Shown here: piece by piece, positions 1 through 35,792 of the stretch
Numbering within the stretch: position 1 is the first letter of the stretch
How the letters are laid out: each line of letters starts with the position of its first letter
Source: an uncultured Pseudobdellovibrionaceae bacterium
GTDB taxonomy: Bacteria; Bdellovibrionota; Bdellovibrionia; Bdellovibrionales; JAGQZY01
Direction of reading: 5' to 3'
Length of the DNA: 64,000 bases
Assembly: GCA_964400355.1 (NCBI GenBank)
Contig: CAYNTO010000012.1
Coordinates: forward strand, 13,290 to 77,289
Notes under the pieces: generated by a model
Told to the model about the DNA's origin: nothing
The model's database searches: none
Seen by the model: only the letters and a program-made list of their open reading frames with translations
Translations under genes and position numbers: made by a program

Positions 1-1891
1 CGCTCACTACCAGATTGCCTTTTTCGCTATCACCGTGAAAATCGAGCACCTTCCAATAGATTTTTTGCTGGGGTCGAAAAATGCTTCTGTCAGTCATTAC
101 TATGATTCGGCGAAGACCGGTTTGCATTTTATCAGAAGACCAACTGCTGCCCATGTATGCTACGTCCTCACCTTTTTCGGCAATTTGGAAATATTCGTAG
201 ATCTTCGGAATTCTCACAAATTGTACCAAGCCAGACGCGTCGCTGGTCTGGGCGCCCCGATTCACAGCTGGAGCACTCCAGCTGTTTTTCTCATTGCGCG
301 CCCAGTTGGAAACAGTGACGCCAGAAATCGGTTGCCCTGTTTCACCAGAAACCGCTCGCAGCTCCACATTCCCTGAATCTAAATTCCACCTCTGCAACAC
401 GATCCCTGTGAGTACAAACGGCACGGCCTGAATTTGATTTCCCGGTTGATCCGCAAAGCTCGCGTGTACCGAACTCATTATCAAATAGGCGCCATGCTTT
501 TTGAGTTGGGGTTTGGCGTATGCGACATGCTCCACGTAATCTTTCGTTGGCGGTAAGTCTTCGATCCAACTGGCAACAGGTTCACCAAAACTCTGCTTGC
601 GCCATTTTTCCAAAATATGGTGTCCCCACAGTTCGCCAGCAGGCGCGGTTTGAACCTCTTTTTTTAGGTCCATAGCGTATGCGCGAAAATGCAAGCGCGG
701 CACATTTTTGTAATTGATCTGCAAAGACTGTTTCGATTCTCCATCGTGACTCATGGAAACCATAGTGAACTGGGGTCTAAGAATTTCACTTTTTTGTGAA
801 ATGCCTTTTCGAGCACCGTAAGATTCAGGATACAGTTTTATCGCCAAATTTATGGCCTCGAGCGCGTGGACAAAGCGATCCTCGTTCTCGGCATCCACCA
901 TTAGCTGTTGCGCCAGTAATGCTTGCCCCGTCGCCCACCACTGGTGTTTTTTAGAACGATCTGCCGTCTGGAGTTCCAATAACGCCTTCATAACGATACG
1001 CCGATCCTGCTTCTGTTCTAAATGCTGAAGTAATTTTTCGTAAAGAGTGTACTGAGCCTCGAGGGCGGCTCCCCAGCGATCGTGCTTTGCATGAAATGCC
1101 TTATGATTCAAAAGAAGCGAGGCCATCCGAACTAGTGGATGATGCTGAGAATCTGTTAAAGACAAAGACGCAGCTCCCTTGAGCATTGCCGATAGCGGAA
1201 GGCCAGACGTTTCGTTAGATTCACGAGCGGTCCAGAATGACGAGTTGGCTAAGTGATTGGCCGCGGAATAAACCACAAAGTCGCGAACAGTTGGCCGCAC
1301 GTCCTGTGGATAGGTGTTCTTTGCGACGTAGTACTTGTAAAAGTCGGGTAACTTTTTCTGAAGAAGATCCTCACTCTGTAGAGCACTACTATAGGCGCGC
1401 AGAATTTCAGAACTGATCTGTGTGGCTGTCCACGTCTTAATGTCTTTGTCCATGGTCGCGGTTTTCTCGCGATTTTGGATTTCCCAACTGTATGCTGTGT
1501 AGTACGCGCCCAACAGATTGCCGTAGTAAATGTCCAACAAAACACTATGGGCCGCGAGATTCGACTTCGTTGTGCTTTTAAAGAAAACAACGGCGGCCTC
1601 CACCTGACCGAGTCCAACCATCAGATCGGTCGCACGAATAAGCGACTCCGTGATGAGCTGGTAATCTTTTTTTCTTTTGGCCTCTGCAAACATCTCCTGT
1701 GCCTTGACCAAGGCCTCCTGGAACTTTTGCTCACTTTTGAGTTTGTCGACTTCCGCAAAGACGGGATTGGATGGAACTGTCTCTGCGGACTCTTGAGAAT
1801 AGCGGGGAACTTTTCCAGTTTTCGAGTGCAGCGGTACTATAATGAGTAGCGCTGTGACAAATACAAAAATAGTAATAAAGGTTTTCTTCAT
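1..1891 (-). CDS. alpha-2-macroglobulin family protein, N-terminal ~630 codons (3' end runs off the left window edge)
   Basis: The ORF is missing from the track because it has no stop in the window. My hand translation of the minus strand from ATG 1891..1889 stays open to position 1. It begins MKKTFITIFVFVTALLIIVPL (signal peptide) and ends ...VMTDRSIFRPQQKIYWKVLDFHGD. That ending resembles the TDRxxYRPG hallmark of MG domains in bacterial alpha-2-macroglobulins. The translation was done by hand and not machine-checked. Confidence 0.55.
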   Translation of the reverse strand, partial: MKKTFITIFVFVTALLIIVPLHSKTGKVPRYSQESAETVPSNPVFAEVDKLKSEQKFQEALVKAQEMFAEAKRKKDYQLITESLIRATDLMVGLGQVEAAVVFFKSTTKSNLAAHSVLLDIYYGNLLGAYYTAYSWEIQNREKTATMDKDIKTWTATQISSEILRAYSSALQSEDLLQKKLPDFYKYYVAKNTYPQDVRPTVRDFVVYSAANHLANSSFWTARESNETSGLPLSAMLKGAASLSLTDSQHHPLVRMASLLLNHKAFHAKHDRWGAALEAQYTLYEKLLQHLEQKQDRRIVMKALLELQTADRSKKHQWWATGQALLAQQLMVDAENEDRFVHALEAINLAIKLYPESYGARKGISQKSEILRPQFTMVSMSHDGESKQSLQINYKNVPRLHFRAYAMDLKKEVQTAPAGELWGHHILEKWRKQSFGEPVASWIEDLPPTKDYVEHVAYAKPQLKKHGAYLIMSSVHASFADQPGNQIQAVPFVLTGIVLQRWNLDSGNVELRAVSGETGQPISGVTVSNWARNEKNSWSAPAVNRGAQTSDASGLVQFVRIPKIYEYFQIAEKGEDVAYMGSSWSSDKMQTGLRRIIVMTDRSIFRPQQKIYWKVLDFHGDSEKGNLVVS

Positions 1892-1968
1892 CACTCAAGT
1901 ATTGAGAACAGACGAAATCTTGTCTACGCAAAAAGCACAGGCCGGTTCGTGCAAATAAAGCTTAACGA

Positions 1969-2904
1969 TCAAAAACGGTGACGTAGCAGCTTTTCTACTT
2001 CTGAGAAGTCGCCGGCGAGAGCCTTCACCGATCTGCCGGGAGAGTAAGCAACCAAAGTGGTGCCCTTAAGGTGCACCGAGGTTCCCTTGGGAAATAACAG
2101 GCCCTGACGATCATGTATGAGAATTCCATTATATCCCAAGCGTGAGGGCACAATGATATCTGTGGACACAATCGCGCGCTCCTTAAAGCGTTGTGCAAGA
2201 TCTTTGAGTGGTTTTTCTAAGGGGCTGGAATTCAAAAAGGCCTGCAGTGGGAGCACTGGGTTTTTTCGGCCCGAGTAGATAAGTATTTCTACTTCAGAAT
2301 TTTGCGGTGGCGCGACTCGAGCCATATATCCGCTCTCATCCTCGAGTTCAGGTAGATGTGTCATGTTTCCGATGCGCACGTATCCACCATTCTGCTCCGT
2401 TGAATCCATGGGGTAATTTTTCACCTTAAAATAACCGCAGAACTCTGTGTAAAAGCCTCGATCCGCCATTTCAGGATCCGTAATAACGTTATCGCTCTGG
2501 TCCTTCGTCGTCGCATCTGTGGATCCGGGTTTGTGGGACCAAAAGCGGTTGTCGTCGCGCCGATACCAGTGGAAATCATAGCCAGGTGCCACCACGAGAG
2601 CAATGAGCGTGTCCTCAGATTTGCTTTTTTGGGAAAACGCGTCTGTCGAGGTAATTCCCAGATCTTTCGTCGCAGCTCTCGTCACTTCCTCACAACTCAC
2701 ATCCTTATACATCGAATCGCTCGCTTCACCCGGTTGAGCAAAGGAGTGTGTAAGCCGGTTGGTGGAGTAATTGTAACAGTTGTTGTTCCACAGATTGCTG
2801 GTGTCGTTGTTCCAAAATTCCAGATCCACTTTAGGAACCGCAATCGTAGGCTTCTCCACACCGTGAGATAAAAGCAAATGGGACAAAAAAAACACAAGGA
2901 ACAC
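1969..2904 (-). CDS. secreted hypothetical protein (possible Cys/His hydrolase)
   Basis: 311-aa ORF with a hydrophobic N-terminus (MFLVFFLSHLLLSHG). WNNNCYNYS followed by YDFHWYRRDDNRFWSHKPG gives a Cys...His arrangement reminiscent of papain-fold hydrolases. I cannot assign a family. Confidence 0.5.
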   Translation of the reverse strand: MFLVFFLSHLLLSHGVEKPTIAVPKVDLEFWNNDTSNLWNNNCYNYSTNRLTHSFAQPGEASDSMYKDVSCEEVTRAATKDLGITSTDAFSQKSKSEDTLIALVVAPGYDFHWYRRDDNRFWSHKPGSTDATTKDQSDNVITDPEMADRGFYTEFCGYFKVKNYPMDSTEQNGGYVRIGNMTHLPELEDESGYMARVAPPQNSEVEILIYSGRKNPVLPLQAFLNSSPLEKPLKDLAQRFKERAIVSTDIIVPSRLGYNGILIHDRQGLLFPKGTSVHLKGTTLVAYSPGRSVKALAGDFSEVEKLLRHRF

Positions 2905-3019
2905 TATAACCCCCGCGAAAATATGTACTAGCCTAGTGCAGATTTTTCGGAGATGCCAACAAGTCTCACTTGGGCGCTAGAGTGTCATGAACTGATTCAG
3001 TGCGCGCCGTGGCTATTAT

Positions 3020-3997
3020 TTAAGCATATATTCTGCGAGCGTCAGGATGGGTGCTTTTCCACAAAAAAGAATCGAAAAAATAATGGCAGAATAACGGTGT
3101 GAGCAATAGTGCTGTGGTGAATGCCTGACCGTTGGAGCTCAGATCAAGCCACTCGTCCTCGACCCAATATTCGGCACTCCCAAAAATAAACGCCGTCAAA
3201 ACAACAACCGCAAGAGGGACGAAACCTTTGTAGAGAGTGGGTTCTATCCGTCGCAACGAGAGATCGGTGAGAGCCAAGTAGCTAAAGCCGTGACTGACAA
3301 CCAACGGAAAAAGAATTTGCGCCGCCGTTTCGCCGTTAATAAATGCACAACCGTAAAATAACGCCGCAAAAAAAACCGATAGCGTTCGGTTAAAGTCACC
3401 GTACCGGTAGAGGCGATAGGCCTCGAAGCCCAGCCAAGAGAATGAAACCACTGTAAAAAACGCGATCGCGACGACGTATACGGAGCTGTTAGGATAAAAA
3501 AACAGTTCATCTGTGGCGTAATACGCCGCCAACTTCGGCGTTTCCCGAAAATGAAATGCCACAAAGGGGACTGCGCACAGACTGTACAAAAAAATATCAG
3601 AAACTTTACTCCATTGCTTGTTGAGCTTTTGATACCATCTGGAGATTCCTAAAAGTTGCCGCACATTGTGAAAGACTGTCGCATACACAACAAAAGCTGC
3701 CAAATATTTCCATTGGAAGTGAACCCATAGATAAAAGACGGCAAAAAATACTATGGGAACGAGCCAATAGACAGAAGTTCGTTGGCGTTCAGAGGGGCGA
3801 AAGTATGTGCGCCAGAGTGTAGCGTAAACATGGCCGGAATCGAGGACTCCCGCGGAAACAAATGAAAACACCAGTAACGCCGCCGACTGTTCGCTGGAAG
3901 GAATCCAATGGCTCAACACGATAGCCAACACGCCTGGGGCGTAGAGCATCAAGATATCGATGTAGAGCTTGCTCCAGATCATAGTTGAATTGTACAT
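3020..3997 (-). CDS. polytopic integral membrane protein (~10 TM), unknown function
   Basis: 325-aa ORF made almost entirely of hydrophobic helices. Loop motifs rich in His/Arg include GHVYATLWRTYF, FHNVRQLLG, VVSHGFSY and CHYFFDSFLWK. The ATG at 3997 lies back-to-back with the divergent ORF at 3998. An alternative ATG is at 3982. Confidence 0.6.
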   Translation of the reverse strand: MYNSTMIWSKLYIDILMLYAPGVLAIVLSHWIPSSEQSAALLVFSFVSAGVLDSGHVYATLWRTYFRPSERQRTSVYWLVPIVFFAVFYLWVHFQWKYLAAFVVYATVFHNVRQLLGISRWYQKLNKQWSKVSDIFLYSLCAVPFVAFHFRETPKLAAYYATDELFFYPNSSVYVVAIAFFTVVSFSWLGFEAYRLYRYGDFNRTLSVFFAALFYGCAFINGETAAQILFPLVVSHGFSYLALTDLSLRRIEPTLYKGFVPLAVVVLTAFIFGSAEYWVEDEWLDLSSNGQAFTTALLLTPLFCHYFFDSFLWKSTHPDARRIYA

Positions 3998-4990
3998 TTG
4001 GGGCTGAAGGAAACAATGGAATTCATGAAGAAAACGAAATGGCTAAATATTCTCAACCCCGCCCCTGCCGCAGACGCAGAGTGGGATCTCGAAAAGTTGC
4101 ACACAGCTTTTGCGGTGAGCTCTTCTGGCCTTTTTGATTACACACTGATTACATTTGGACATAAACGCCTAAACCCCTGGCCGCTTGCTCAGTATGGCAT
4201 GGGCCGCGATTCACGCTTCTCTCCCCTTATTGCGATCAACCCTATATATAATCATCCCGTGGAAACCGCCCAAAAAGTAGCTACGCTATTAGCACTGTAT
4301 TCAAACAGCATAGGCATCAATTTGATTACCGGATCGTTTTTTAATGAAATGCAATCACTCAACGAAAACACCAGTCCGCAGCAAAAACAGACGCGTCTGG
4401 TGGAGTTTTTCAAAATTTTTAGTGCCTTAATCAATGACGGCGAACTCAAAGGCTTTGCAGGCGAGCACTACAACTTTTCAACAGTACGTATTCACAGGCC
4501 GGTTGCAAGAAAGGTGGCTGTTTTTATTTCGGGGCAGTTCGCAAGCACTGTCAGCGACGAAAATGTTTATTTTATCCACAATCTGCGCCCGCAGGACAGC
4601 CTCCCCGCTGCAACTCAAAAGAATTCTGGATTAGGATTGGGAATCTGCACTCGGCCCTCCGCCGAGGAAGCTCAAGCGGCATTGGATGAACATTGGCCCC
4701 AGTCTCGTGAAGGCGAAATAATGTTTAAGCTGAGCATGGCGAACTCACAAACTCCTTGGAACATTTGGCTCAGGGAACACTTGAAAACATCCTTGCCTAA
4801 AGATGCACAGTTTTGCTTACAACCATTGATGAACTTTCGATCCTCCTCGCCCTACTTGGTAGGAAGTTATGAATTCGTGCGAACACAAATTAAAAATTAC
4901 ACTGCAAAAGGTTATGACACCTTCTTGCTCGATTTCCGCCACGAAGACTTTGCCCATCTCGAAAGGTGCCTCAAGGATTTGGGGAGCTAA
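3998..4990 (+). CDS. LLM-class (luciferase-like) flavin-dependent oxidoreductase
   Basis: The pattern NHPVETAQKVATLLALYSNSIGINLITG...RLVEFFKIFSALINDGELKGFAGEHYNF follows the luciferase-like monooxygenase core (hP..Ak..atLd..s.GR..lNlvtG ... f.GeyY). The track start at 3998 is TTG. ATG at 4016, preceded by GAAGGA, is the more likely start. Confidence 0.65.
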   Translation: MGLKETMEFMKKTKWLNILNPAPAADAEWDLEKLHTAFAVSSSGLFDYTLITFGHKRLNPWPLAQYGMGRDSRFSPLIAINPIYNHPVETAQKVATLLALYSNSIGINLITGSFFNEMQSLNENTSPQQKQTRLVEFFKIFSALINDGELKGFAGEHYNFSTVRIHRPVARKVAVFISGQFASTVSDENVYFIHNLRPQDSLPAATQKNSGLGLGICTRPSAEEAQAALDEHWPQSREGEIMFKLSMANSQTPWNIWLREHLKTSLPKDAQFCLQPLMNFRSSSPYLVGSYEFVRTQIKNYTAKGYDTFLLDFRHEDFAHLERCLKDLGS

Positions 4991-6630
4991 CGGTGAAACT
5001 CCCAACGAGTGGAACCTCAAAGATATTGGCGGCGTCTCTCCTATTTGCGTTGTTAGTCGCAACCCTTGCCAACTACTGGCTGGCAAGCTCGCAAAATATT
5101 TTAGTCCATAATACGGAGTGGGCATCTGGTAAGCCCGAGATGCAATATCTTCTCAACGGCAGTGAAACATATACGTTCACTCGTCCAGCGCTTGCTATGA
5201 ATGTGCTGAACCTTCATCCGTGGTTTGGACGCCAAGAGGTGTATAGTAAAAAACAAGGGGTACTGACGCAGTTTTCATTCGAGTTCCGAATCTCCTACAA
5301 TGTCTATATCGATGTGGAACTTTCGCGCTCAGCGGAGGGTGTGCAAGGAGTTCGAATATACAACTCTCCTTTCAAACACTCGTTTCTCTATGTCGCTAAT
5401 CGCGACGGAGCTTTTTTGGAAAAAAGAGATTTGGGCAATATCTCCATTCACCCGTTCTTGGTTTGGAATAGCGTCGCAATTAATTACATTCCGTCCACTT
5501 CAAAACTTGAAGTTCGCGTGAACGAGAATACAGCATTCAATGGGAATTTCTCTCTACGTTCGGGGAGCATTGGCTTTCGCGGAGGTAACTACCGAGCCCA
5601 GATCGACAACGTGAAGGCCTCCTTTGATAATGGCCAACAGATTCGCGACGACTTTAAATTTCAACTGCCGCGCGGAGTCTGGTGGAAACATTTCTTTCTC
5701 GCGCTTGTGAGTGCAGGATTGCTAATAGCACTTTCGGTGGCATTCGGGCGCAGACGAGGCGCCGTACGCTTTCTCGGCTACGTTTTCACACTTATCGCGA
5801 TCGTTTTTTTGTTCGATATTGTCAACTGGTCTCGACGCTCACTTGCGTTTTACGATGATATTCTTTTAGAACTCTCTACTCCGGTCAGTTACGTCGAATT
5901 TTATCGAAAGCGATTTTTTAAACACTGGTACAAGCTGGTCACAGGGCACGACATTCTAACAGATGAACACATTCGCACTATTTTTTATAGTTTGCACCCA
6001 CAAGACAAACCGGTCATTTTCAAGGGACCGTTTATTTGCGATCAGCGGTTCGGCAGCTCGTGCGAAACGGTGGAGCCTTCACGTCCCATCGCTGTACAAA
6101 AACACGCCTGCAGGATCCTCCTGCTGGGTGGATCGCGCGGTGTGGGCACGGGGGCACGTCTGCGCGACGATCCTTACTTTGTCCAGATCTATCAAAAACT
6201 GCTTACCTATCAGCTTAAATGCGATGTGATGCTATACAATTTTACAGACAACAGAACCGATAATTTTCCAGAACAAGTGGCGAGCGGCATCATCGAGCAG
6301 ATTCAACCCCACGTGATTGTACTGGATTACTTATACCGCACTGACGAAGAAGTCGGATACATGTTAAAAGTTAAAAAAATTGCTGAGACTAATACTAAGA
6401 TATTCATTTTGGACAACTATCCCTCGCGTTACTCGCGAATGCTTGCTAAGAATGGCTATAAATCGATTCCCATCTACGAGATTTTAAACGCAGCAGAGAT
6501 GAAGGGTTCCGGTTTCATAAAATGGGATCAGCATCACACCACATCTTACGGTCACAAACTGATTGCAGAAGCTGCTGTGCCTTACATTTTCGAAGCTCTT
6601 CAGCTCCATCCGGATTACATTAAAAAGTAA
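4966..6630 (+). CDS. membrane-anchored two-domain protein: N-terminal beta-rich (ConA/LamG-like?) domain, 2 TM, C-terminal SGNH/GDSL-type (DltD/AlgJ-like) domain
   Basis: TM1 is ILAASLLFALLVATLANYWL. The N-terminal domain carries RSGSIGFRGGNYRAQIDNVKASF, a lectin-fold-like G.igfr..a.iDNv pattern. Two further TMs are HFFLALVSAGLLIALSVAF and FLGYVFTLIAIVFLFDIV. The C-terminal domain has ILLLGGSRGVG (GDS-like block I) and KWDQHHTTSYGHKLIAEA (SGNH block V, DxxH). The likely true start is GTG 4993, with GGGGAG 6 nt upstream, immediately after the upstream stop at 4988..4990. Confidence 0.6.
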   Translation: MPQGFGELTVKLPTSGTSKILAASLLFALLVATLANYWLASSQNILVHNTEWASGKPEMQYLLNGSETYTFTRPALAMNVLNLHPWFGRQEVYSKKQGVLTQFSFEFRISYNVYIDVELSRSAEGVQGVRIYNSPFKHSFLYVANRDGAFLEKRDLGNISIHPFLVWNSVAINYIPSTSKLEVRVNENTAFNGNFSLRSGSIGFRGGNYRAQIDNVKASFDNGQQIRDDFKFQLPRGVWWKHFFLALVSAGLLIALSVAFGRRRGAVRFLGYVFTLIAIVFLFDIVNWSRRSLAFYDDILLELSTPVSYVEFYRKRFFKHWYKLVTGHDILTDEHIRTIFYSLHPQDKPVIFKGPFICDQRFGSSCETVEPSRPIAVQKHACRILLLGGSRGVGTGARLRDDPYFVQIYQKLLTYQLKCDVMLYNFTDNRTDNFPEQVASGIIEQIQPHVIVLDYLYRTDEEVGYMLKVKKIAETNTKIFILDNYPSRYSRMLAKNGYKSIPIYEILNAAEMKGSGFIKWDQHHTTSYGHKLIAEAAVPYIFEALQLHPDYIKK

Positions 6631-7943
6631 AGGAAGGGCGGAAGAAACTCGTCGTCACTCCAAAGTTCTACCGTGAAAATATATGCAATAACGGCTACTG
6701 CCACTATGCCAACCTGAACCGGGAATGGCCAGCGCAAATAAAAATCCAGGTTTTTTTCTTTTTCCTGTTTGTATTCAATGAGAAAATAAAACGTGAGTAG
6801 GACAGCGAGCAAAAGATAAGGGAATGTACCAATTGGCGCGAATGGACTCCACAAAAGGAACCTGTCCGGTGAAAATAATTTGTAGGCGCGGTAGCTGGAT
6901 GTGATTAATCCATTGAACGACAGCACGCAAATTAATAGCACGCCGCCCAGAATAGCTTGTGCGTGTTTAAAAGTGCTGAACTTGGTTTGAATGTAAGAAT
7001 ATAAAACAACCGCCAGCCCGTTGCCAACACCAAAGGCCAACCAGCTCCAGTCGAATCCATGCCACAATCCGATCAGAACAAACGAAACCATAACTATTAA
7101 ATATTTATTCACCTTCCGACCAAACTGGAGCATGAGAGGGAAAGAAACAAAATCGCGAATCCAGTGGCTTACCGAGATATTCCAACGATCCCAGAGGTTC
7201 AGCGGATTGGCCGCAAACAACAGTGATCGAAAATTATAAGATAAGGTCACTCCGAAAACCGCTGCAGCGCCCCTTCCGCAATCGCTGAGCATCGCAAGAT
7301 GAACATAAATCCCGAGTGTCGTGATTAAACCGTATATTACGGCATTGATGGCCGCGTAGTCCGCAAACTCTAGAAGATTGCGGAGCTCTCGGATCCAAAA
7401 GACTAGTAAGAGATATTTAAATAAACCAACAATAAATATGAGCGCTCCACTGATTATTGATTTTACATTGACGGAATTCGTACGTGTGAAGTAATCGGCA
7501 CTCTGCGACTTAAAGACATGGATGGGGCCCGCCATGAGTGCTGGGAAAAAAGTTACGTTATTGTAAAGATCGAGGACGTGTACCACAGGTTTGGCAGATT
7601 GTGACCGAATCTGCAGTAGGAAAAGCGAAAGCAGGCCAAGAATTGCAAAGCTTAACCCATAAAGGGGGATGTGTTGAGTCTCGATGAGCATTCGCAGTAG
7701 CACGAAAGCAAGCACATCAAAAGTTAAGGCAATGTAGAGCTTGCGCGGCAAAGAGGACTTGAGCAGCCAATAGTTGACAACACATATTAAAAAATGAATG
7801 CCGGCCCATTGCCAACTCCAGCTGGCATGCCACAAAATATTCATGGTAAAAAATTTCCATCGGAACCAGCTGGCCGGGAGTAAGTAAAAGGCAAAGGCGC
7901 TCAAGGCTACAAAAAAAATGAATGCGCTGGATTCGTAAGTCAT
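6615..7943 (-). CDS. MBOAT-family membrane-bound O-acyltransferase (DltB/AlgI-like)
   Basis: 442-aa polytopic protein. WDRWNISVSHWIRDFVSFPL matches the AlgI/DltB WrrWhisLs.WlRDY.y.PL block. LIGLWHGFDWSW carries the conserved MBOAT histidine. Its start forms an ATGA overlap with the upstream ligase stop. Confidence 0.85.
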   Translation of the reverse strand: MTYESSAFIFFVALSAFAFYLLPASWFRWKFFTMNILWHASWSWQWAGIHFLICVVNYWLLKSSLPRKLYIALTFDVLAFVLLRMLIETQHIPLYGLSFAILGLLSLFLLQIRSQSAKPVVHVLDLYNNVTFFPALMAGPIHVFKSQSADYFTRTNSVNVKSIISGALIFIVGLFKYLLLVFWIRELRNLLEFADYAAINAVIYGLITTLGIYVHLAMLSDCGRGAAAVFGVTLSYNFRSLLFAANPLNLWDRWNISVSHWIRDFVSFPLMLQFGRKVNKYLIVMVSFVLIGLWHGFDWSWLAFGVGNGLAVVLYSYIQTKFSTFKHAQAILGGVLLICVLSFNGLITSSYRAYKLFSPDRFLLWSPFAPIGTFPYLLLAVLLTFYFLIEYKQEKEKNLDFYLRWPFPVQVGIVAVAVIAYIFTVELWSDDEFLPPFLYFLM

Positions 7944-9244
7944 AGACGCGGTCTCATCTTTTTTAGCCGTTCTGAAAAAATATCCGCGGCGAAAATTCTC
8001 ACTACTGCGGGAATCATGTAGCTGGGCAATTGACTCTCTGAGAAATCTTTAAAGTAAGATCGAAAATTTGTCTCCTCCTCATTCTCATTGAGGACGATAT
8101 CGACACATACTGCGTTTCCAATCAAAGGATGGCGCTGAGAGTAGGCCATGACATCTTTAACAGCTGTGATTCTGGAAATGATATCTTCCAATTCGGTGGG
8201 GAAGAATTTGCGACCTCCTACATTAATAGTTCCGTCCTGGCGACCGATGATACGGAAAAAATCGTGAGGATCTCTGTCGTCCACCACATCTCCCGTGCGG
8301 AACCAACCATCCGCATCGGCGCCGCCCTCGTGATTGAGGTAACCCAACATCATACATGGAGAGCGAACACTTAGCAGCCCACCTTCGATACGAAATGGAT
8401 TGATTTCTCTGTTCAGAGTCAATCTCCAAGGCCGCTCACCGTCTGTAATGGTTTTAAGAATTCCTACCTCCGTCATTCCATAGGTATGCATCAACTCAGC
8501 TCGAGGCAAGCGCTCCTGATAAGCTCGTAAAGTAGATTCGAGCGATGGCTCCGACCCAAAGGCGATTTTGCGGAGCGGCTGCAATTTATGGCTGCATGCT
8601 GCCAGCTCGGGTCTTAATAGGTTCATAAAACTCGGAGTGGTTTGAAAGTAGTCTACCGTTTGCGCGCTGATGACATCTATGATTTCCCTCGGTGAGAGTT
8701 TGTTATCGCAAAGTGCGAGGCGGGCGCGATGTGCATAGGCCTCGAGCAGGGTTTCCAATCCGGCTATGGAATCTAGGGGTGAAAAGGCCAAAGTGGTTTT
8801 ATAATGGGGGCCGATAGTTTTGTACTTTTTGAGGAATTTTTGTAAATCGTGAAGGACAAATTTGTGACGCACGCTCAGGGAGCCCGACGTTTTGACAATG
8901 CAAGGGCTACCGCTGATCGACGACAGATCGGCAATGACATTTGTTCCACGTCCCATATACGTCATCTTCACGTCACCAAATTCGCAGTCCATTCGAGCCG
9001 CCTCGACGACATCGGCCCTATAATGGGGATCATTGTAGCGGATGGCTGAACAGATATGGAAAGGTTGATGCTCTTCCACGAGAGCAATAACCTGTGCGAA
9101 CGTGTCACGAGCGTGTGCCGCGGGAAGAACTTTTAACGTCGTATTTCCGCGCCAAAGTGTCTTGTAGTGATCCACTGATTTTACAAATTCATTGTATGTT
9201 GTTGTGGAACAGTTCGAAATTAAAAACAAATCAGCCGGCATCAC
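7940..9244 (-). CDS. ANL-superfamily adenylate-forming ligase (DltA-like carrier-protein ligase)
   Basis: Adenylation core motifs are present: KTSGSLSVRHK (degenerate A3), YGMTE (A5), GWFRTGDV (A7) and GRQDGTINVGGRKFFPTELE (A8). At 434 aa it is short for the family. The track start is GTG 9244; an ATG lies at 9241. Confidence 0.8.
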   Translation of the reverse strand: MMPADLFLISNCSTTTYNEFVKSVDHYKTLWRGNTTLKVLPAAHARDTFAQVIALVEEHQPFHICSAIRYNDPHYRADVVEAARMDCEFGDVKMTYMGRGTNVIADLSSISGSPCIVKTSGSLSVRHKFVLHDLQKFLKKYKTIGPHYKTTLAFSPLDSIAGLETLLEAYAHRARLALCDNKLSPREIIDVISAQTVDYFQTTPSFMNLLRPELAACSHKLQPLRKIAFGSEPSLESTLRAYQERLPRAELMHTYGMTEVGILKTITDGERPWRLTLNREINPFRIEGGLLSVRSPCMMLGYLNHEGGADADGWFRTGDVVDDRDPHDFFRIIGRQDGTINVGGRKFFPTELEDIISRITAVKDVMAYSQRHPLIGNAVCVDIVLNENEEETNFRSYFKDFSESQLPSYMIPAVVRIFAADIFSERLKKMRPRL

Positions 9245-9542
9245 TGGCGCCCATTTTTTTTTGGATCAATGGAATTAACGAGTCTACCCGTGCAAAGTAA
9301 TTTGTGGATGTATCTATGATCTCGTCCGTTGCAAATTCCACTTTTGTTCCAACTTTATTGCAGAGAACCTCTTCAAGAACAAAAATAAAAGCAACAAGAC
9401 CCATGGAATCCAGAAGTGCTTGGGACGTTCCATAGAGTTGTGTCGACAACTCAGGACGGACGTCTTTGAAATGCGGCGTGTTCTGCGCACACTTTTCAAA
9501 AGTAGGAACGATAATTTCTTGAAAGATCTCCTGATCTGTCAT
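9231..9542 (-). CDS. carrier protein (DltC-like phosphopantetheine-attachment protein)
   Basis: 103 aa. ALLDSMGLVAFIFVLEE has the LDSxG serine context typical of D-alanyl carrier protein DltC, rather than the DSLD context of FAS ACP. Its start forms an ATGA overlap with the upstream crotonase stop. Confidence 0.75.
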   Translation of the reverse strand: MTDQEIFQEIIVPTFEKCAQNTPHFKDVRPELSTQLYGTSQALLDSMGLVAFIFVLEEVLCNKVGTKVEFATDEIIDTSTNYFARVDSLIPLIQKKMGASDAG

Positions 9543-10264
9543 TGCGAATTCCTCAAGAACAGTGCGATTCGCTGGCGTGTCTCATTGTCTTTGGCCAACT
9601 GTGACGATTGGCGCGCACATTTTACAAGAACCTGTTTGGTAATGCCGGAATTTTTAAGCAGCATCGCTTTAGTGACCGACAACGATCGTGCAGTGGCCTT
9701 TTCAAACTGATGTTGGCAATGTTCGATGTAAGCTTGCGTATTTGCCTCTACCGCGGAGAGGAGTCCGATTTCGAGAGCTCGATCGGCAGATATCACGGGA
9801 TGTAGCAGGGCTAGCTCTGCCAAACGCCGCGAACCCATTCGCCATTGGAGAAGAGGAGTGATAATTCCTGGCGAAAGTCCTAGACGAGTCTCGGTGAGCT
9901 GATAGGAGCTCTCAGGAGTGCCTACCGCGACATCGGCAGCGGCCAAGAGTCCGAGCGCCCCGCCTGTATTTTTGCCTTTAGCAGCACTCACAATAGGCAC
10001 AGCACAAGTAAGAAATGTCCAATACATTTCCGCAAGTGGCAAAAGGTTGGCTTCTTTATAAATCCACGCCAAGTCCGCACCCGACGACAAATTTTTTCCA
10101 CGACCTTCGAGCGCGATACAACGCACCTTAGAGCTGTACTTTTTAATCAGTGCCATTAACTGCTTTGCTATTTTCGAATCCATCGCATTTGCTTTTTCGG
10201 CTCGATCGATAACAATGTGCAAACGATTATTGACCACGGAAAAATCTATATGGCTCATGCCCAC
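9539..10264 (-). CDS. enoyl-CoA hydratase/isomerase (crotonase) family protein
   Basis: LEGRGKNLSSGADL and AAKGKNTGGALGLLAAADVAV match the crotonase oxyanion-hole segments. An ATG at 10258 gives an ATGA overlap with the type III PKS stop. Confidence 0.8.
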   Translation of the reverse strand: MGMSHIDFSVVNNRLHIVIDRAEKANAMDSKIAKQLMALIKKYSSKVRCIALEGRGKNLSSGADLAWIYKEANLLPLAEMYWTFLTCAVPIVSAAKGKNTGGALGLLAAADVAVGTPESSYQLTETRLGLSPGIITPLLQWRMGSRRLAELALLHPVISADRALEIGLLSAVEANTQAYIEHCQHQFEKATARSLSVTKAMLLKNSGITKQVLVKCARQSSQLAKDNETRQRIALFLRNSQ

Positions 10265-11310
10265 CTCAAGATAGCCGTCTCGATAGTTAGGCCAGGTCCC
10301 ATTGTAATCATAACGGCATTCTCATGGGCGTTTAAGGCTTGTGAATCTTGGTACAGCTGGTAGGTAGCCAGAAAGCTCGCGCTGGATATGTTTCCGTAGT
10401 GCTTGAGAGTTTCTCTGGTGTACTTGAGCGCCTCGGGTGGTAGCTCTAGCTTTTTTTCAATAGCGTCCAGAATAGCGGCTCCGCCCGTATGGACAATCCA
10501 GAGAGTCAACTGGTTGAGCGTTAAATTCTCGCGATCGAGTAGAGAGTTTATAGGAATATGTATGTGTCGCGCCAATGTTTCGGGAGTTTTTTTATCTATA
10601 AAAAAGCAGTTGCGATTTTGCGCCGAATTGTAATCAAAACGCAACATCGGTAATGACTCGGGAATAAGATACGATTGAAACTGACTGACACGCGGATATT
10701 TTCCAGCATGTTTGCCTGAAGATTCCAATAGGGCCACCGCTATGCCGTCACCAAAAAGCGAATTGACGAGATCCGTGTTCTCGCTACCATCCAAACAGTA
10801 AATAGCAGAGCAGATCTCCGCACACACCAGCAACCCCTTGCGCCCCGGATTGTCGGCGCACCAGTTTTTAACGGCCTTTAAGCCGTTCAACCCAGCATTG
10901 CACCCCATACTGACAACATCCAGCCGCTCGCAATCAGCGCGGAGTCCTAGGGTTTTGTACAGCAGAGCTGACAAGGACGGCACAATAAAACCCGTCGAGG
11001 TGATACAGCACACAAAATCGATGTGTTGCGAGGATACATTGAGTTTATTGAGCAGTCGAGAGGTCGCTTCCCGGGTGAGCTTTAAAGACTCGTTTTTAAA
11101 TCGCTCGATGAGTTGAGAATTAGTCTCGTTACTGTGTTCCAGTGACAGGTGGCGTTTTTCAATATGAGGGTGGTTGAAAAAACGTTCGAAGCTTTTTTGA
11201 TGAGGGCCTTCGATTCTCAGCTTTTGAAAAACCTCACGTTGCGTGAATGTCTGCACCGGAAATGCACTTTCAACCCCAAGAAAATAGACTTCGCGCGACT
11301 TTTCCATCAC
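10255..11310 (-). CDS. type III polyketide synthase (chalcone/stilbene synthase family)
   Basis: The Cys-His-Asn triad sits in type III PKS contexts. VSMGCNAGLNGL corresponds to the GC.AG Cys motif. WIVHTGGAAILD corresponds to HPGGPAILD. HYGNISSASF corresponds to YGNMSSACV. GPGLTIETAIL is also present. The length of 351 aa fits the family. Confidence 0.9.
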   Translation of the reverse strand: MMEKSREVYFLGVESAFPVQTFTQREVFQKLRIEGPHQKSFERFFNHPHIEKRHLSLEHSNETNSQLIERFKNESLKLTREATSRLLNKLNVSSQHIDFVCCITSTGFIVPSLSALLYKTLGLRADCERLDVVSMGCNAGLNGLKAVKNWCADNPGRKGLLVCAEICSAIYCLDGSENTDLVNSLFGDGIAVALLESSGKHAGKYPRVSQFQSYLIPESLPMLRFDYNSAQNRNCFFIDKKTPETLARHIHIPINSLLDRENLTLNQLTLWIVHTGGAAILDAIEKKLELPPEALKYTRETLKHYGNISSASFLATYQLYQDSQALNAHENAVMITMGPGLTIETAILRWA

Positions 11311-11340
11311 TGAAAAGATTAAAAGAATTTGTCCCGGGCA

Positions 11341-12405
11341 TCAAACAGTATTGATTGAGGACATCATGTCAAATGGCTCGATTCCCACCTGCCGAAGTAA
11401 GTCGGAGTCCATCTGCTTCACCTTGCGCGAACGCAAGTCCATGTTGTCTCCGCACAGCAATTTGTCGCAGACTATGGGCATTGAAGGAAGTTGGAAATGG
11501 GGATCGCGGTAAATATTGCCTACGGATCCACCAACAAAGCAGGAGCCGCGAAAGATCTCTCCTGCAGGATCAATCTTAATGTGATCCAAGCCCGCCCAGC
11601 AGTGCCACCCCTTAAAACTGTTGCGACGATGAAATACCAAATCGTTGTAATGAAATTCCTCGCTGATGAGAACACCATCGCTGCGGGAGAAGAGTTTTAG
11701 TTTTTTTTGCCGCTCCTCCTTCATGAGTCCGATGATGGCTGCGCGCTCACTCTCTGCGAATTTGTCCTCGTACCCCACTCTTTTTACACCGGGCACTTTG
11801 GGTTCTTTATAATTTGGTCCCTTCACCATCCTCAACTCACAACGCTCGAGCTTTTGATCTTTAAATGTTTCAAACAGATACTGCACCTGCTCCGACTGCC
11901 CAGGCGCCACCATAATACGCACAATTAGAGTTTTTTGATGAGTACCAGCGACACGATTCCACTGGTTTTTCCACTCCTCCAGCTGGAGAATTTTTTCCAC
12001 ATACAGCTGAAGACGCGGCGCCATTGCCTCCAAGTGCAAACTAATCACTACACAATCCAGCAGATTAAAGAGTTCCACCAAATACTCAATGGGTCGAAAC
12101 CCGTTTGTTGTAATACTGATTACGGAAGGGTCGCGCTCGCGCATGTAGGAACACAGTTGTAAAAAATCGGGATGGAGGGTCGGCTCACCACCAGTAAGAC
12201 TCCAGCTAATGTTGCGTCCATGATGGCGCGTCAGTATATCTACGACTCTCTGCATATCCGCCAGAGGCACATGAGGTGAGCGTTGGTCATGAATAATATC
12301 ACTGCAATAGGAACAATCAAAATTGCACCTTTTTCCCACGTACCAATCCACCACCATCCCTGGTTTACGCGAAGGATAAAATAGAGCGACGGGTTGGGCG
12401 TCCAT
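11341..12405 (-). CDS. radical SAM protein with Cys-rich C-terminal (twitch/SPASM-like) extension
   Basis: GKRCNFDCSYCS is the CX3CX2C radical-SAM motif, and TGGEPTL is the SAM-binding GGE motif. The C-terminus reads HCWAGLDHIKIDPAGEIFRGSCFVGG...VCDKLLC. Confidence 0.85.
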   Translation of the reverse strand: MDAQPVALFYPSRKPGMVVDWYVGKRCNFDCSYCSDIIHDQRSPHVPLADMQRVVDILTRHHGRNISWSLTGGEPTLHPDFLQLCSYMRERDPSVISITTNGFRPIEYLVELFNLLDCVVISLHLEAMAPRLQLYVEKILQLEEWKNQWNRVAGTHQKTLIVRIMVAPGQSEQVQYLFETFKDQKLERCELRMVKGPNYKEPKVPGVKRVGYEDKFAESERAAIIGLMKEERQKKLKLFSRSDGVLISEEFHYNDLVFHRRNSFKGWHCWAGLDHIKIDPAGEIFRGSCFVGGSVGNIYRDPHFQLPSMPIVCDKLLCGDNMDLRSRKVKQMDSDLLRQVGIEPFDMMSSINTV

Positions 12406-12491
12406 TACTCTCTACGATAAGGGTGATCGATTTCGGTGGTCAAGGCGTGGCATCCTATTAGACATTGCAAAAATGAAATGTCACGGCTAGC

Positions 12492-13751
12492 GTGGAATCG
12501 ACGATGAGTGCTCAAAACCCAGATACTGACATAGTACCCTCAGCGGCCGCTACCGCTGCTCTCACGGACATAGAAAACCGAGCCACGTCGTCCCCTTCGT
12601 TTTGCGGGTTACCCTGGCGACATCTGTTTGTATCCCCCGACGGCAATGTGAAACCCTGTTGCAGGTATATACGCGGCAAAAATTTTCCCGAAGTCAGTAA
12701 CCCCGCGCAAGCATTCCACAGTACCTACTGGGAAAACCTGCGCCGGGATATGCTCCACAACAAAACAATTGCCGGTTGCGCCAAATGCGACCAGGAAGAG
12801 CGATTAAATACAAAAAGTCTGAGAGAAAAAATAAATACAGATGCCGTCTACGCCATCAACCCTTTAGAAGACAAGCCCGAGGCCCACACTCTCGAGGTGG
12901 CGTTTTCAAACACGTGCAATTTGTCGTGTATTATGTGTGATTCTCGCTTTAGCAGTGCATGGACGATGGTGGAAAAACAACTCTTTGGTAAAACGCTATA
13001 TCCAGAGAAAAAATTTCGCTTTAACGCGCAAGATTTAAACGCCTTCCCGGGCCTCCGTTTACTCAAAGTCACAGGTGGCGAACCGTTTTTAGAACATCAA
13101 ATCCATTTGGCGACTCTGAACTATATCGTCGAATTTCTCAAGCCTGAGGGTTTCCGACTGGATTACAGCACCAATCTCACCGTCCTCCCAAAACCGCAAA
13201 TCATCGAACAGTGGGCGAAGTTTGAACGCGTGGAAGTGACGCTCAGTTTGGATTCCATCTTCGAAAACGAACTCAAATACATCCGTTATCCTTCGGATGC
13301 GGCCACCATCCGTACCCATGTGCGATTTTATTTGGAGTTGATGAACCAACTCCCCAACCTCCACGTCGTAGTACGGCCAACTGTACACGTTCTCAATATA
13401 GCCAGCATGCTCTACACGATGCAGTGGTGGTACTCAGAAAAACAAAAATACGCCATTGACGACCGCTGCAAAGACTCGGTTTCTTTCTTAGCTTATCCGG
13501 AGTTTCTGCAGCCCACTGCGCTCTCCCCGGATGAACAACTTCGAGTGCGTCACCTTGTAGAAAATTTTACGATCACAAAAAGTGACCATAAGAATTTGCT
13601 GCACCACCAAACACGGCTTCTCAATTACCTGCATGAAAAGCCATTTGATCCGCGCCATGCTCAGAAACTCAAAGAATTTTTAAAAGCAATGGATTCGCAC
13701 AGAGGAACTCACTTTCGCGCACAGTTCGAATATTTAAATGATGCCCGTTAG
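12492..13751 (+). CDS. radical SAM protein with N-terminal twitch/SPASM-type Cys-rich domain (permuted order)
   Basis: The N-terminus FCGLPWRHLFVSPDGNVKPCCRY...GCAKCDQEE is a SPASM/twitch-type auxiliary-cluster signature. It is followed by FSNTCNLSCIMCDS (CX3CX2C) and VTGGEPFL. The track start is GTG 12492; an ATG lies at 12504. Confidence 0.8.
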   Translation: MESTMSAQNPDTDIVPSAAATAALTDIENRATSSPSFCGLPWRHLFVSPDGNVKPCCRYIRGKNFPEVSNPAQAFHSTYWENLRRDMLHNKTIAGCAKCDQEERLNTKSLREKINTDAVYAINPLEDKPEAHTLEVAFSNTCNLSCIMCDSRFSSAWTMVEKQLFGKTLYPEKKFRFNAQDLNAFPGLRLLKVTGGEPFLEHQIHLATLNYIVEFLKPEGFRLDYSTNLTVLPKPQIIEQWAKFERVEVTLSLDSIFENELKYIRYPSDAATIRTHVRFYLELMNQLPNLHVVVRPTVHVLNIASMLYTMQWWYSEKQKYAIDDRCKDSVSFLAYPEFLQPTALSPDEQLRVRHLVENFTITKSDHKNLLHHQTRLLNYLHEKPFDPRHAQKLKEFLKAMDSHRGTHFRAQFEYLNDAR

Positions 13752-15481: not shown

Positions 15482-15538
15482 TCTTCAAAAGTCTGTGCCA
15501 GCGCCATTGGAGATACAATGAAAAATAGCCACTGAACA

Positions 15539-16624: not shown

Positions 16625-16778
16625 ATACCCGCCAGGGAGCCAGAAACCAATTAAGGTTATAAAGCCCTACCAACAATAGCGAACGCAAGGGACGGGCAAT
16701 ACGCGCGAAGCGCAAAATTTAATGATCGAAAAATTTAGAAATACTGGACCAGCTACCAACAGCCGGAAAATTTTGAAG

Positions 16779-16854
<76 letters not shown>

Positions 16855-16916
16855 TCTTAAAGGTCAGGGGAATCTTATCTGATATAATCTAGGATTGAGT
16901 CAAGAGAAGGAACGAC

Positions 16917-16940
16917 AAGGCCCACATTGACGCGGGCCTT
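16917..16940 (-). terminator. stem-loop downstream of ORF 16966..17484 (no U-tract)
   Basis: AAGGCCC-N10-GGGCCTT is a perfect 7-bp inverted repeat 25 nt past the stop. It lacks a T-run, so terminator function is uncertain. Confidence 0.3.
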
Positions 16941-16965
16941 CTAAATCGCACTGTTTACTGTAGAA

Positions 16966-17484
16966 TTAGGCGCTGGCGAGTTGAACGCGAACGGGAATAC
17001 ATGCCAAAGTTTTACGCTCTTCTTTGAGGTCAAAACCCACAGCTTCACCACCGCAAATCACTGAGTCATACACCTTGCGAAGAACATCTAACTCTTCTTG
17101 CTCATCATTGGCCTGGAGAGCCTCTTGGATGGCTTCGAAGACACTCATGATGTCGGGAGTTGTTACAACTTTGGGGAGGCGCTCCATATCGAGCCCCATA
17201 AGACCCAATGGACGAAAACCCACTAGAGTTGTCGTGATAAGGATCTTTTTACCAGTTCCAAAATTCACTTGGAGGAACGTTTGTCCCACTTCATCCTCGC
17301 GGTAGAGAATCTCATCCAGATCGAGGCAGTTCAGCGTGATTCTTTTATTATCCAGCTGTTGCTCAATAATGATGTAATCCGACAAAACTGAATCCACCAG
17401 GCGAAGACCCTCAGAACCCTCTACGAAGCGACGAATCTCACTCACAACGTTCTTAAAATCAGCACTCACTTTGGTACGCTTCAA
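16966..17484 (-). CDS. hypothetical cytoplasmic protein
   Basis: 172-aa ORF with a TTG start at 17484 and GGAGG 4 nt upstream. No signal peptide and no motif I recognise. Confidence 0.5.
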   Translation of the reverse strand: MKRTKVSADFKNVVSEIRRFVEGSEGLRLVDSVLSDYIIIEQQLDNKRITLNCLDLDEILYREDEVGQTFLQVNFGTGKKILITTTLVGFRPLGLMGLDMERLPKVVTTPDIMSVFEAIQEALQANDEQEELDVLRKVYDSVICGGEAVGFDLKEERKTLACIPVRVQLASA

Positions 17485-35791: not shown

Positions 35792-35792
35792 T

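Follow-up and report, generated by a model that had tools for sequence, protein, structure and literature searches.

The DltXABCD proteins are responsible for the D-alanylation of teichoic acids in Firmicutes, and dlt-like loci are also present in some Gram-negative bacteria, e.g. Bordetella. The AlmEFG system adds glycine to lipid A via a stand-alone DltA-like ligase and a small carrier, and AlgX combines an SGNH domain with a carbohydrate-binding module. For bacterial pathways that pair a membrane-bound O-acyltransferase (MBOAT) with an SGNH protein, two designs have been described, i.e. Dlt, with a carrier protein as donor, D-alanine as the transferred group and the acyl-shuttle motif FxYxxF on the separate microprotein DltX, and the Pat, Alg, and Wss systems, with acetyl-CoA as donor, acetate as the transferred group and the shuttle fused to the MBOAT protein at its C-terminal end, as in PatA, AlgI, and others (PMC12148441). 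The shuttle has been shown experimentally for PatA and DltX; PatA auto-acetylates its shuttle Tyr and then hands the acyl group to its SGNH partner PatB (PMC12148441). Here we describe a cluster of seven genes in a stretch of 64,000 nt (referred to as the window) from an uncultured Pseudobdellovibrionaceae bacterium (GenBank assembly GCA_964400355.1, contig CAYNTO010000012.1, positions 13,290 to 77,289). The genes encode a probable carrier protein, an adenylate-forming ligase of the ANL superfamily, an MBOAT protein, a luciferase-like monooxygenase (LLM), a DpgA-like type III polyketide synthase (PKS), a crotonase-fold protein of the enoyl-CoA hydratase (ECH) family, and a 554-aa membrane protein with an SGNH domain. 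We tentatively propose, with a confidence that stays a little below even, that the seven genes form a cell-envelope acylation pathway in which a ligase/carrier bridge joins a small polyketide pathway to an MBOAT-SGNH relay, and which has so far been found in Bdellovibrionota only. The analysis suggests that the acid attached to a sugar polymer of the cell surface is derived from a polyketide and is not D-alanine.

Gene content and conservation of the cluster

The feature spans approximately positions 3998-11310 of the window. The first-pass annotation of this DNA, made from the sequence alone, had described a Dlt-type module of carrier, ligase, MBOAT, and SGNH protein that was complete with four genes at 4966-9542. 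However, the PKS, crotonase, and LLM genes, which are conserved together with the four in about 12 loci, had been missed, and the feature extends beyond the earlier borders. On the minus strand, an operon has the order radical SAM-PKS-ECH-carrier-ligase-MBOAT, with overlapping stop and start codons. The ECH gene (9539-10264) is translationally coupled on both sides, i.e. to the PKS gene (10255-11310) and, with an ATGA at 9539-9542, to the carrier gene (9231-9542). The carrier gene overlaps the ligase gene (7940-9244) by 14 nt (9231-9244), and a further ATGA stop/start overlap (7940-7943) connects the ligase gene with the MBOAT gene (6615-7943). On the plus strand, the 3′-end of the LLM gene (3998-4990, with the ATG at 4025 as the likely true start) overlaps the open reading frame (ORF) of the 554-aa protein (4966-6630) by 25 nt, and the two genes are probably co-transcribed. 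The gene for the 554-aa protein and the MBOAT gene are convergent, with a 3′-overlap of 16 nt (6615-6630). This overlap, as well as the overlapping stop and start codons of the carrier, ligase, and MBOAT genes, had been reported in the first-pass annotation and proved to be real.

The complete set of seven genes was found in about 12 distinct loci, i.e. the window, L001/L002, L003, L009, L011-L015, and L021-L024, using local BLAST and hidden Markov model mapping. Because the same genes are conserved in about 12 independent loci, chance ORFs can be ruled out. The protein identity between complete loci is only 20-50%, and the gene order is shuffled, the commonest layout having PKS-ECH on the strand opposite to carrier-ligase-MBOAT-LLM. 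Some arrangements are maintained throughout. The carrier gene is located directly upstream of the ligase gene in every locus, the PKS and ECH genes are always neighbours, and an LLM gene is present in every related locus. The ligase and MBOAT genes are adjacent in all complete loci, often with overlapping codons, the only exception being L015, in which the MBOAT gene precedes the carrier gene.

A scan of the GTDB species genomes with the ligase alignment yielded seven loci, six of which are titled Bdellovibrionota (Pseudobdellovibrio, Bdellovibrio, Bacteriovoracaceae); the same is true for L003. Five further loci were retrieved from metagenomes with the same alignment. All complete seven-gene loci that bear a taxon name belong to the Bdellovibrionota. 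Close relatives of the MBOAT protein are very rare, i.e. only three were found among 5.8 billion clustered proteins, and the contigs that encode them contain the same genes. Among sequencing runs, the region was found in metagenomic DNA runs only.

Two kinds of loci deviate from the complete set. A Pseudobdellovibrio locus (L010, 5036-13367) has kept the genes for carrier, ligase, LLM, ECH, and PKS, and the genes for the MBOAT and the 554-family protein are both absent. As both are missing together, the two genes behave as a pair. Two genes past the PKS gene of this locus, after a subtilase gene, an AT3-family (PF01757) membrane acyltransferase is encoded, which may be a non-orthologous replacement of the MBOAT protein. 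A remote sister module is present on two metagenome contigs (L016, 3837-8577; L019, 8001-12602). It comprises an ANL ligase that is a remote relative of the window ligase (about 25% identity), a DUF6356 microprotein, an MBOAT protein ending in FIYYKF or FIYYRF, and a convergent gene of the 554 family. Neither a carrier nor a PKS gene is visible in the sequenced flank, and both contigs end just upstream of the module. The DUF6356 proteins are basic membrane microproteins of 73-74 aa; they were considered as substitutes for the carrier and rejected, being basic (pI 10.8), hydrophobic, and devoid of an Asp-Ser motif.

The MBOAT protein and its C-terminal Tyr

The MBOAT protein (442 aa) matches Pfam PF03062 with an E-value of 3.6e-7, above the cutoff of the model. 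It carries the LWDRWNISVSHWIRDF block, and its catalytic His295 (7061-7059), which is part of a GLWHG motif, aligns with His336 of DltB. The AlgI/DltB block and the conserved His noticed at first pass are thus both present. Among solved proteins, only DltB is related to it by sequence (5.9e-12). Nevertheless, the score against the DltB equivalog model TIGR04091 is 76.6 bits, compared to a cutoff of 375.

Hydropathy analysis revealed two extra hydrophobic helices close to the C-terminus (aa 367-391 and 405-430). They are followed by the terminal residues PPFLYFLM, in which FLYFLM constitutes an acyl-shuttle motif with Tyr439 (6629-6627). The C-terminal Tyr is invariant in all MBOAT orthologues, and a Tyr is present at position -4 in 96 of 120 homologues. 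Other residues often take the place of the flanking Phe, as in PAYFKF and PVYFKI, and the first residue of the motif is frequently Pro or Ala. A separate DltX-like ORF was not found; among all ORFs of at least 25 aa in positions 1-17000 of the window, only that of the MBOAT protein ends in a FxYxxF-type motif. The vicinity of a carrier gene and a gene for an MBOAT protein with fused shuttle means that the cluster fits neither of the two described designs (PMC12148441).

The codon for Tyr439 and the rest of the YFLM* tail are located inside the 16-nt antiparallel overlap with the end of the ORF for the 554-aa protein (...DYIKK*), so that the functional end of the MBOAT protein is constrained by the reading frame of its partner.

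The 554-aa protein has a lectin-like domain and an SGNH domain

The 554-aa protein has no Pfam or NCBIfam match, and word-indexed homologue searches with the protein alone or with a four-sequence profile recovered only the protein itself. An exhaustive HMMER search yielded 649 representative clusters (E <= 1e-3, clusters at 50% identity). The protein defines a large, unnamed family for which no Pfam model exists. Some family members (L017, L020) are encoded away from any MBOAT gene, so that the family is broader than the MBOAT-paired subgroup. L003 contains two tandem paralogues of the family, and in L015 three tandem SGNH/GDSL-type paralogues of 336-367 aa (3976-7268) are encoded directly upstream of the MBOAT gene, in addition to a gene of the 554 family further off.

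An AlphaFold2 model based on an alignment of 141 sequences had a pLDDT of 90.2 and a pTM of 0.90 (a single-sequence prediction with a pLDDT of 38 was not used). The model consists of an N-in transmembrane (TM) anchor (aa 15-42), a beta-sandwich (aa 50-230), a TM hairpin (aa 236-286), a helical linker, and an alpha/beta SGNH domain (aa 350-554). The loop of the hairpin, GRRRGAVR, is positively charged and cytoplasmic, and application of the positive-inside rule to the model places both globular domains in the periplasm. A Foldseek search showed that the beta-sandwich matches lectin and glucanase folds of the concanavalin A (ConA)-like type, i.e. DUF1080, CBM66, GH16, and galectins.

The SGNH assignment, which had been made by eye in the first-pass annotation, is backed by a profile of the C-terminal domain, which matches GDSL/SGNH proteins in the PDB at 5.8e-16 and brings blocks I, II, III, and V into register. 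The predicted triad of Ser390 (6133-6135), Asp521 (6526-6528), and His524 (6535-6537) is invariant or nearly so across 141 relatives. Judged from these matches, the domain belongs with generic GDSL proteins and not with the DltD family, although the kind of enzyme is that of DltD. Of the superfamily blocks, I (Ser) and V (Asp-x-x-His) are present. The oxyanion-hole residues, i.e. the Gly of block II and the Asn of block III, are kept in 110 and 125 of the 141 family members, respectively, but both vary in the MBOAT-paired members; in the window protein they are replaced by Asp428 and Thr459. For comparison, PatB, which is an acyltransferase, lacks the block II Gly but has the block III Asn (PMC12148441). 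The loss of these residues suggests a transferase-like variant of the SGNH domain in the MBOAT-paired members.

The adenylating ligase

The ligase (434 aa, with an ATG at 9241) matches the Pfam families AMP-binding (1.7e-14) and AMP-binding_C. It contains the core motifs A3 (TSGS, 119-122, plus Lys128), A5 (YGMTE, 255-259), A7 (TGD, 317-319), A8 (GRQDGTINVGGRKF, 334-347), and A10 (Lys428/429), all of which are invariant or nearly so in nine orthologues. Four of them, i.e. A3, A5, A7, and A8, had been listed at first pass, and A3 had been called degenerate. The variant TSGSLS was indeed observed; it is confined to the window and L001, whereas the other orthologues have TSGSSG. The ligase gene of L003, which stems from a Pseudobdellovibrio metagenome-assembled genome (8658-10004), contains an in-frame TAA at 8862-8864 (...LLA*KRPF...), so that gene callers split it into ORFs of 68 and 351 aa; it could be a pseudogene or the result of an assembly error.

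A profile of nine ligase sequences was compared with the PDB. The best matches were a DhbE-like aryl-acid ligase (4.9e-24), MenE (8.5e-22, full length), 4-chlorobenzoate ligase (CBL; 1.8e-21), and FadD5 (2.9e-21), and DltA was found at 5.5e-19. DltA is also not among the best 25 of the 84 NCBIfam families that are matched by the ligase. By these comparisons, the ligase is about equally distant from CoA ligases and from carrier-loading enzymes, likewise from aryl-acid ligases and DltA, and it is not an orthologue of DltA. The earlier suggestion that it need not be a D-Ala ligase is supported; DltA ranks no better than DhbE-like, MenE, and 4-chlorobenzoate ligases.

The A4 region reads SPLDSIAG in the window and SP(L/A)(D/E/G)SIAG across the orthologues, and the alignment with MenE pairs this stretch with LPLFHISG. 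According to the alignment and the A4 motif, Ile160 presumably occupies the position of the amino-binding Asp of amino-acid activators. Asp/Glu158 was considered as the amino-binding residue and rejected, because it is located two residues upstream in the full-length MenE alignment and is replaced by Gly in L012. Alignments also showed that the short ligase has no insertion of the type present in fatty acyl-AMP ligases (FAALs).

The probable carrier protein

The 103-aa protein contains the motif LLDSMG, with LDSMG at residues 44-48 and Ser46 encoded at 9407-9405, within LLDSMGLVAFIFVLEE. Therefore, the DltC-like serine context described at first pass is present, and Asp45-Ser46 is invariant in 9-10 orthologues. 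All carriers are acidic, with pI values of 4.2-5.1 (4.5 for the window carrier). Using hhalign, Ser46 was aligned with Ser36 of DltC (P 0.002) and of the acyl carrier protein (ACP) AcpP (P 0.007); the DltC sequence used for this comparison is 100% identical to PDB entry 4bpg. Matches to NCBIfam are weak and comprise DltC and ACP models besides one stray Csx14, with a best E-value of 0.0057. The only match of the window carrier itself is DltC (E 0.1). The protein is probably a phosphopantetheine carrier; statistically, this is the weakest part of the set of assignments.

The polyketide synthase, the crotonase, and the monooxygenase

DpgA forms 3,5-dihydroxyphenylacetyl-CoA from malonyl-CoA, helped by the crotonases DpgB and DpgD. 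The PKS of the cluster (351 aa) matches Pfam Chal_sti_synt_N and Chal_sti_synt_C and has the Cys, His, and Asn motifs at about aa 137, 274, and 307. With the NCBIfam DpgA model NF042429, it scores 310 bits, and three scanned orthologues score 299-375 bits. The cutoff is 425 bits, and the control, Pks11 of M. tuberculosis, reached 183 bits. The solved relatives include Pks11, which is the best match (1.9e-37), and CylI. By its scores, the PKS is DpgA-like but not a DpgA equivalog.

The neighbouring crotonase-fold protein (241 aa) matches Pfam ECH_1 at 1.1e-21; a crotonase of the size of DpgC or an aminotransferase is not encoded in the cluster. The LLM matches Pfam Bac_luciferase (8.5e-13), and a profile of its orthologues matches the FMNH2 monooxygenases SfnG/SsuD at 1.8e-16; the enzyme is probably FMNH2-dependent. 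In the venemycin and kendomycin pathways, DpgA-type enzymes yield a free aromatic acid, which is then loaded onto an ACP by an adenylation domain (PMC5132015). A type III PKS region in Bdellovibrio genomes (B. bacteriovorus) has been flagged by genome mining only (PMC12843806). Apart from this mention, a search of the available literature for type III PKS together with MBOAT, or for Bdellovibrio together with MBOAT or type III PKS, yielded nothing relevant.

A proposed pathway and its alternatives

In the proposed pathway, the DpgA-like PKS and the crotonase would use malonyl units to make a small thioester of an aromatic acyl group, of the dihydroxyphenylacetyl type. The FMNH2-type LLM would modify this thioester, possibly freeing the acid, which is the weakest step of the scheme. 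The motifs of the ligase and the carrier and the strict adjacency of their genes suggest that the ligase would adenylate the acid and load it onto the phosphopantetheine at Ser46; in a variant of this step, the ligase would load malonate, with the chain then being completed by the PKS on the carrier itself. Judged by homology with PatA and DltB/DltX, transfer of the acyl group through the inner membrane to Tyr439 of the MBOAT protein would depend on His295 of the same protein. The ConA-like domain of the 554-aa protein may hold a periplasmic glycan, so that the Ser390-Asp521-His524 triad could take the acyl group from the Tyr and esterify the polymer, candidates being peptidoglycan, lipopolysaccharide, and exopolysaccharide. 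Gene content, motifs, folds, and conservation are documented here, and the cluster is well supported in its architecture, whereas the chemistry is a proposal. We regard the part from the MBOAT protein via the Tyr to the SGNH domain as likely. The whole chain, i.e. an acid from PKS/ECH/LLM that passes via ligase, carrier, MBOAT, Tyr, and SGNH domain to an ester on a periplasmic glycan, is put forward with reserve, as a scheme that might well be right but for which we would not claim an even chance.

A bridging role of the ligase and the carrier is suggested by the loci described above, because both stay with the PKS in L010 in spite of the loss of the MBOAT and 554-family genes, because a remote ligase adjoins the MBOAT and 554-family genes in L016 and L019 with no PKS visible, and because all seven genes travel together elsewhere. 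Several observations count against the proposed pathway. The PKS does not reach the cutoff for DpgA equivalogs (310 versus 425 bits), the ECH protein is generic, with no DpgB or DpgD model among its top NCBIfam matches, and neither a DpgC-type nor a thioesterase step was identified in the window. The role assigned to the LLM is a guess, and the ligase resembles the CoA ligases MenE and CBL no less than it does carrier-loading enzymes. The carrier has no match to the Pfam PP-binding family even at E=10, and no significant match in the PDB with phmmer or with profiles of three and nine sequences. The gene content of L010 implies a role of carrier and ligase that does not require the MBOAT protein, and the remote modules in L016 and L019 have a ligase but no visible carrier. 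In addition, PatA, the characterised MBOAT protein with a fused shuttle, uses acetyl-CoA, and pathways with a fused shuttle have no carrier protein (PMC12148441).

The last three points, i.e. L010, L016/L019, and the donor used by PatA, would be accounted for if the ligase and the carrier primed the type III PKS with an acid starter, and the MBOAT-SGNH pair acted like PatA/PatB from an acyl-CoA, either the polyketidyl-CoA product of the DpgA-type enzyme or plain acetyl-CoA. The location of the carrier and ligase genes directly downstream of PKS-ECH in the window is compatible with such a function, and its analogues would be the FAAL and ACP that serve FtpA in Myxococcus, and CylA/CylB upstream of CylI. 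The best solved relatives of the PKS, Pks11 and CylI, use acyl or ACP-bound starters. A trio of ligase, ACP, and type III PKS is documented for Myxococcus FtpD/FtpC/FtpA, according to the citation of Hayashi 2011 in PMC10896814. However, the PKSs of the cluster are far nearer to DpgA, which has malonyl-CoA as starter, than to Pks11 with its long-chain starter (299-375 versus 183 bits), and the 434-aa ligase is short and without the FAAL insertion. Priming of the PKS would also not predict that the ligase and MBOAT genes are adjacent in all complete loci except L015, or that a remote ligase-MBOAT pairing occurs away from any visible PKS, and acetyl-CoA as donor would leave the strict co-conservation of the MBOAT and PKS genes unexplained. 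On balance, we consider priming of the PKS, which is the main alternative, rather unlikely.

The acceptor and the transferred group could also differ from those of the proposed pathway. The cluster resembles a type III PKS biosynthetic cluster, and such a region has been mined in Bdellovibrio genomes (PMC12843806). Putative tailoring enzymes are encoded nearby, namely the LLM in all loci, radical SAM enzymes in two of them (window, L001), and, in L003 and L010, an alpha/beta hydrolase, and no genes for polymer synthesis flank the cluster. This would be in line with a polyketide product that is secreted or bound to the membrane, and with MBOAT and SGNH proteins that acylate this metabolite, or a lipid, instead of an envelope polymer. 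Yet the combination of an MBOAT protein with a Tyr shuttle and a periplasmic partner with lectin-like and SGNH domains is known only from extracytoplasmic polymer acylation, and the ConA-like domain of the type found in carbohydrate-binding modules points to a carbohydrate ligand, which makes acylation of a small molecule or lipid improbable. Very improbable, in our estimation, is a true Dlt-type aminoacylation, in which the ligase would activate D-Ala, Gly, or another amino acid for an envelope polymer and the PKS genes would be unrelated. It is true that the LLDSMG of the carrier resembles the DltC motifs LLDSFG and LLDSMG, that DltC and DltB are the sole NCBIfam match of the window carrier and the sole solved sequence relative of the MBOAT protein, respectively, and that the A4 region of the ligase often has an acidic residue (Asp or Glu158). 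But residue 158 is a Gly in L012, and the alignment places Ile160, not an Asp, at the amino-binding position. DltA is neither the nearest solved relative of the ligase nor one of its 25 best NCBIfam families, the MBOAT protein remains far below the cutoff for DltB (76.6 versus 375 bits), a DltX microprotein was not found in positions 1-17000, and the SGNH protein is not DltD. Finally, about 12 distinct loci have kept the PKS, ECH, and LLM genes together with the module. From the Dlt-type four-part module of the first-pass annotation, the parts can be retained, i.e. ligase, probable carrier, MBOAT protein, and membrane-anchored periplasmic SGNH protein, whereas the Dlt label fits in part only, in view of the MBOAT protein, the ligase, the SGNH family, and the three genes that had been missed.

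Flanking genes

Three radical SAM genes flank the PKS gene, i.e. a plain one (11341-12405, minus strand; Pfam Radical_SAM, 1.3e-15), which is the first gene of the minus-strand operon, one with a twitch domain (12492-13751; NF033640, 251 bits, above the cutoff), and one with a B12-binding domain (13748-15481). The first two are shared with L001 only, and none of the three was found in the other loci. The orthologue of the first gene in L001 is also located beside the PKS gene, and the proteins are 73% identical. This first gene is a lineage-specific accessory, common only to the window and its closest relative, and the radical SAM genes near the PKS gene may encode lineage-specific tailoring enzymes. 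In L001, a fatty-acid hydroxylase gene is located at the far end of the locus, past the radical SAM genes.

Upstream of the LLM gene, and divergent from it with almost no intergenic space, a multi-pass membrane protein of 325 aa is encoded (3020-3997), and a protein of 311 aa is encoded at 1969-2904. Neither has a Pfam match; both are conserved (63-72%) and syntenic in L001, and absent from the other loci. L010 and L003 have, upstream of the carrier gene and coupled to it, a gene for an alpha/beta hydrolase.

Rfam, promoter, and terminator scans of the region yielded nothing above chance. The remainder of the window represents an ordinary diderm chromosome, with type IV pilus genes including a secretin gene, carAB, lepA, metK, purH, mlaD, alr, and addAB. 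Two tandem genes for signal peptidase I (S26; 35072-36569) adjoin lepA. The alanine racemase gene (50886-52028) is distant from the cluster and has no evident link to it.

Comparison with known systems

If the proposed pathway is true, an MBOAT-SGNH relay can carry acyl groups of secondary metabolites that are much larger than those known so far, and the biosynthesis of natural products is linked to the decoration of the cell envelope. As the cluster appears to be restricted to predatory Bdellovibrionota, the decoration could distinguish self from prey, or it could shield the envelope of the predator from its own lytic enzymes. The restriction to a clade of predatory bacteria and the nature of the acceptor are directly testable in culturable relatives, and the type III PKS regions mined in Bdellovibrio gain a testable function. 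Moreover, a large unannotated family with 649 representative clusters has been defined, which is characterised by a TM anchor, a ConA-like domain, a TM hairpin, and an SGNH domain. Two things would be seen for the first time, i.e. a carrier-fed MBOAT-SGNH relay with a fused Tyr shuttle, as a hybrid of Dlt and Pat/Alg, and the use of such a relay to attach an aromatic acyl group derived from a polyketide, in place of acetate or D-alanine, to a glycan of the periplasm or the cell surface; we hold this double claim to be doubtful.

In common with DltXABCD, the cluster encodes a ligase of the adenylating kind, a small protein that is probably a carrier and has the LLDS(M/F)G serine, and an MBOAT protein with a catalytic His, from which the acyl group would pass via the Tyr of a FxYxxF-type motif to a membrane-anchored extracytoplasmic SGNH protein with a Ser-His-Asp triad. 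In contrast to Dlt, the Tyr shuttle is fused to the MBOAT protein and DltX is missing, and the MBOAT protein is far from the DltB cutoff. The ligase is not an orthologue of DltA and, by alignment, lacks the amino-binding Asp. The SGNH partner is from another family and has a ConA-like domain and three TM helices, and there is a genetic link between the module and PKS, ECH, and LLM genes. The cluster resembles the known MBOAT-SGNH relays in its predicted way of working, but, as far as sequence comparison can tell, it falls outside the Dlt system in four components, i.e. DltB, DltX, DltA, and DltD.

The polymer O-acetyltransferases PatA/PatB, AlgI/AlgJ/AlgF/AlgX, and WssH/WssI of Gram-negative bacteria share with the cluster an MBOAT protein of about 440-470 aa in which two extra helices at the C-terminus lead to a Tyr shuttle, and, in the periplasm, a known or putative SGNH transferase whose oxyanion hole is not canonical; the combination of an SGNH domain with a carbohydrate-binding module has its counterpart in AlgX. 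These systems have neither a carrier nor a ligase and obtain acetate from acetyl-CoA (PMC12148441), whereas in the cluster the MBOAT gene is translationally coupled to the genes for an ANL ligase and a probable carrier, and a polyketide pathway is conserved alongside. In addition, the first residue of the shuttle motif is often Pro or Ala, and not Phe.

A DpgA-like type III PKS beside a crotonase-fold helper is also found in the DpgA-D pathway to 3,5-dihydroxyphenylacetyl-CoA and dihydroxyphenylglycine and in the Ken/Vem pathways to the starter 3,5-dihydroxybenzoate, and in the latter an aromatic acid is later adenylated and loaded onto an ACP. Compared to DpgA-D, the cluster has one ECH protein instead of two, and the PKSs score 299-375 bits against a cutoff of 425. 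The DpgC dioxygenase, the transaminase, and the assembly line of nonribosomal peptide synthetases or PKSs are missing, and the LLM and the MBOAT-SGNH relay stand in their place.

AlmEFG of Vibrio cholerae also modifies the envelope of a Gram-negative bacterium by means of a small carrier and a DltA-like ligase that stands alone. However, AlmG is of the lipid A acyltransferase type, acts on the cytoplasmic side and is not an MBOAT protein, neither an SGNH partner nor a Tyr shuttle is involved, and an amino acid serves as the substrate. FtpD/FtpC/FtpA and the cyanobacterial Cyl proteins (CylA/CylB upstream of CylI) resemble the cluster in that a stand-alone adenylating enzyme and a carrier are found beside a type III PKS. 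Their ligases are FAALs that provide fatty-acyl starters, and an MBOAT-SGNH pair is not part of these systems, in contrast to the cluster described here, with its 434-aa ANL ligase and its DpgA-like PKS.

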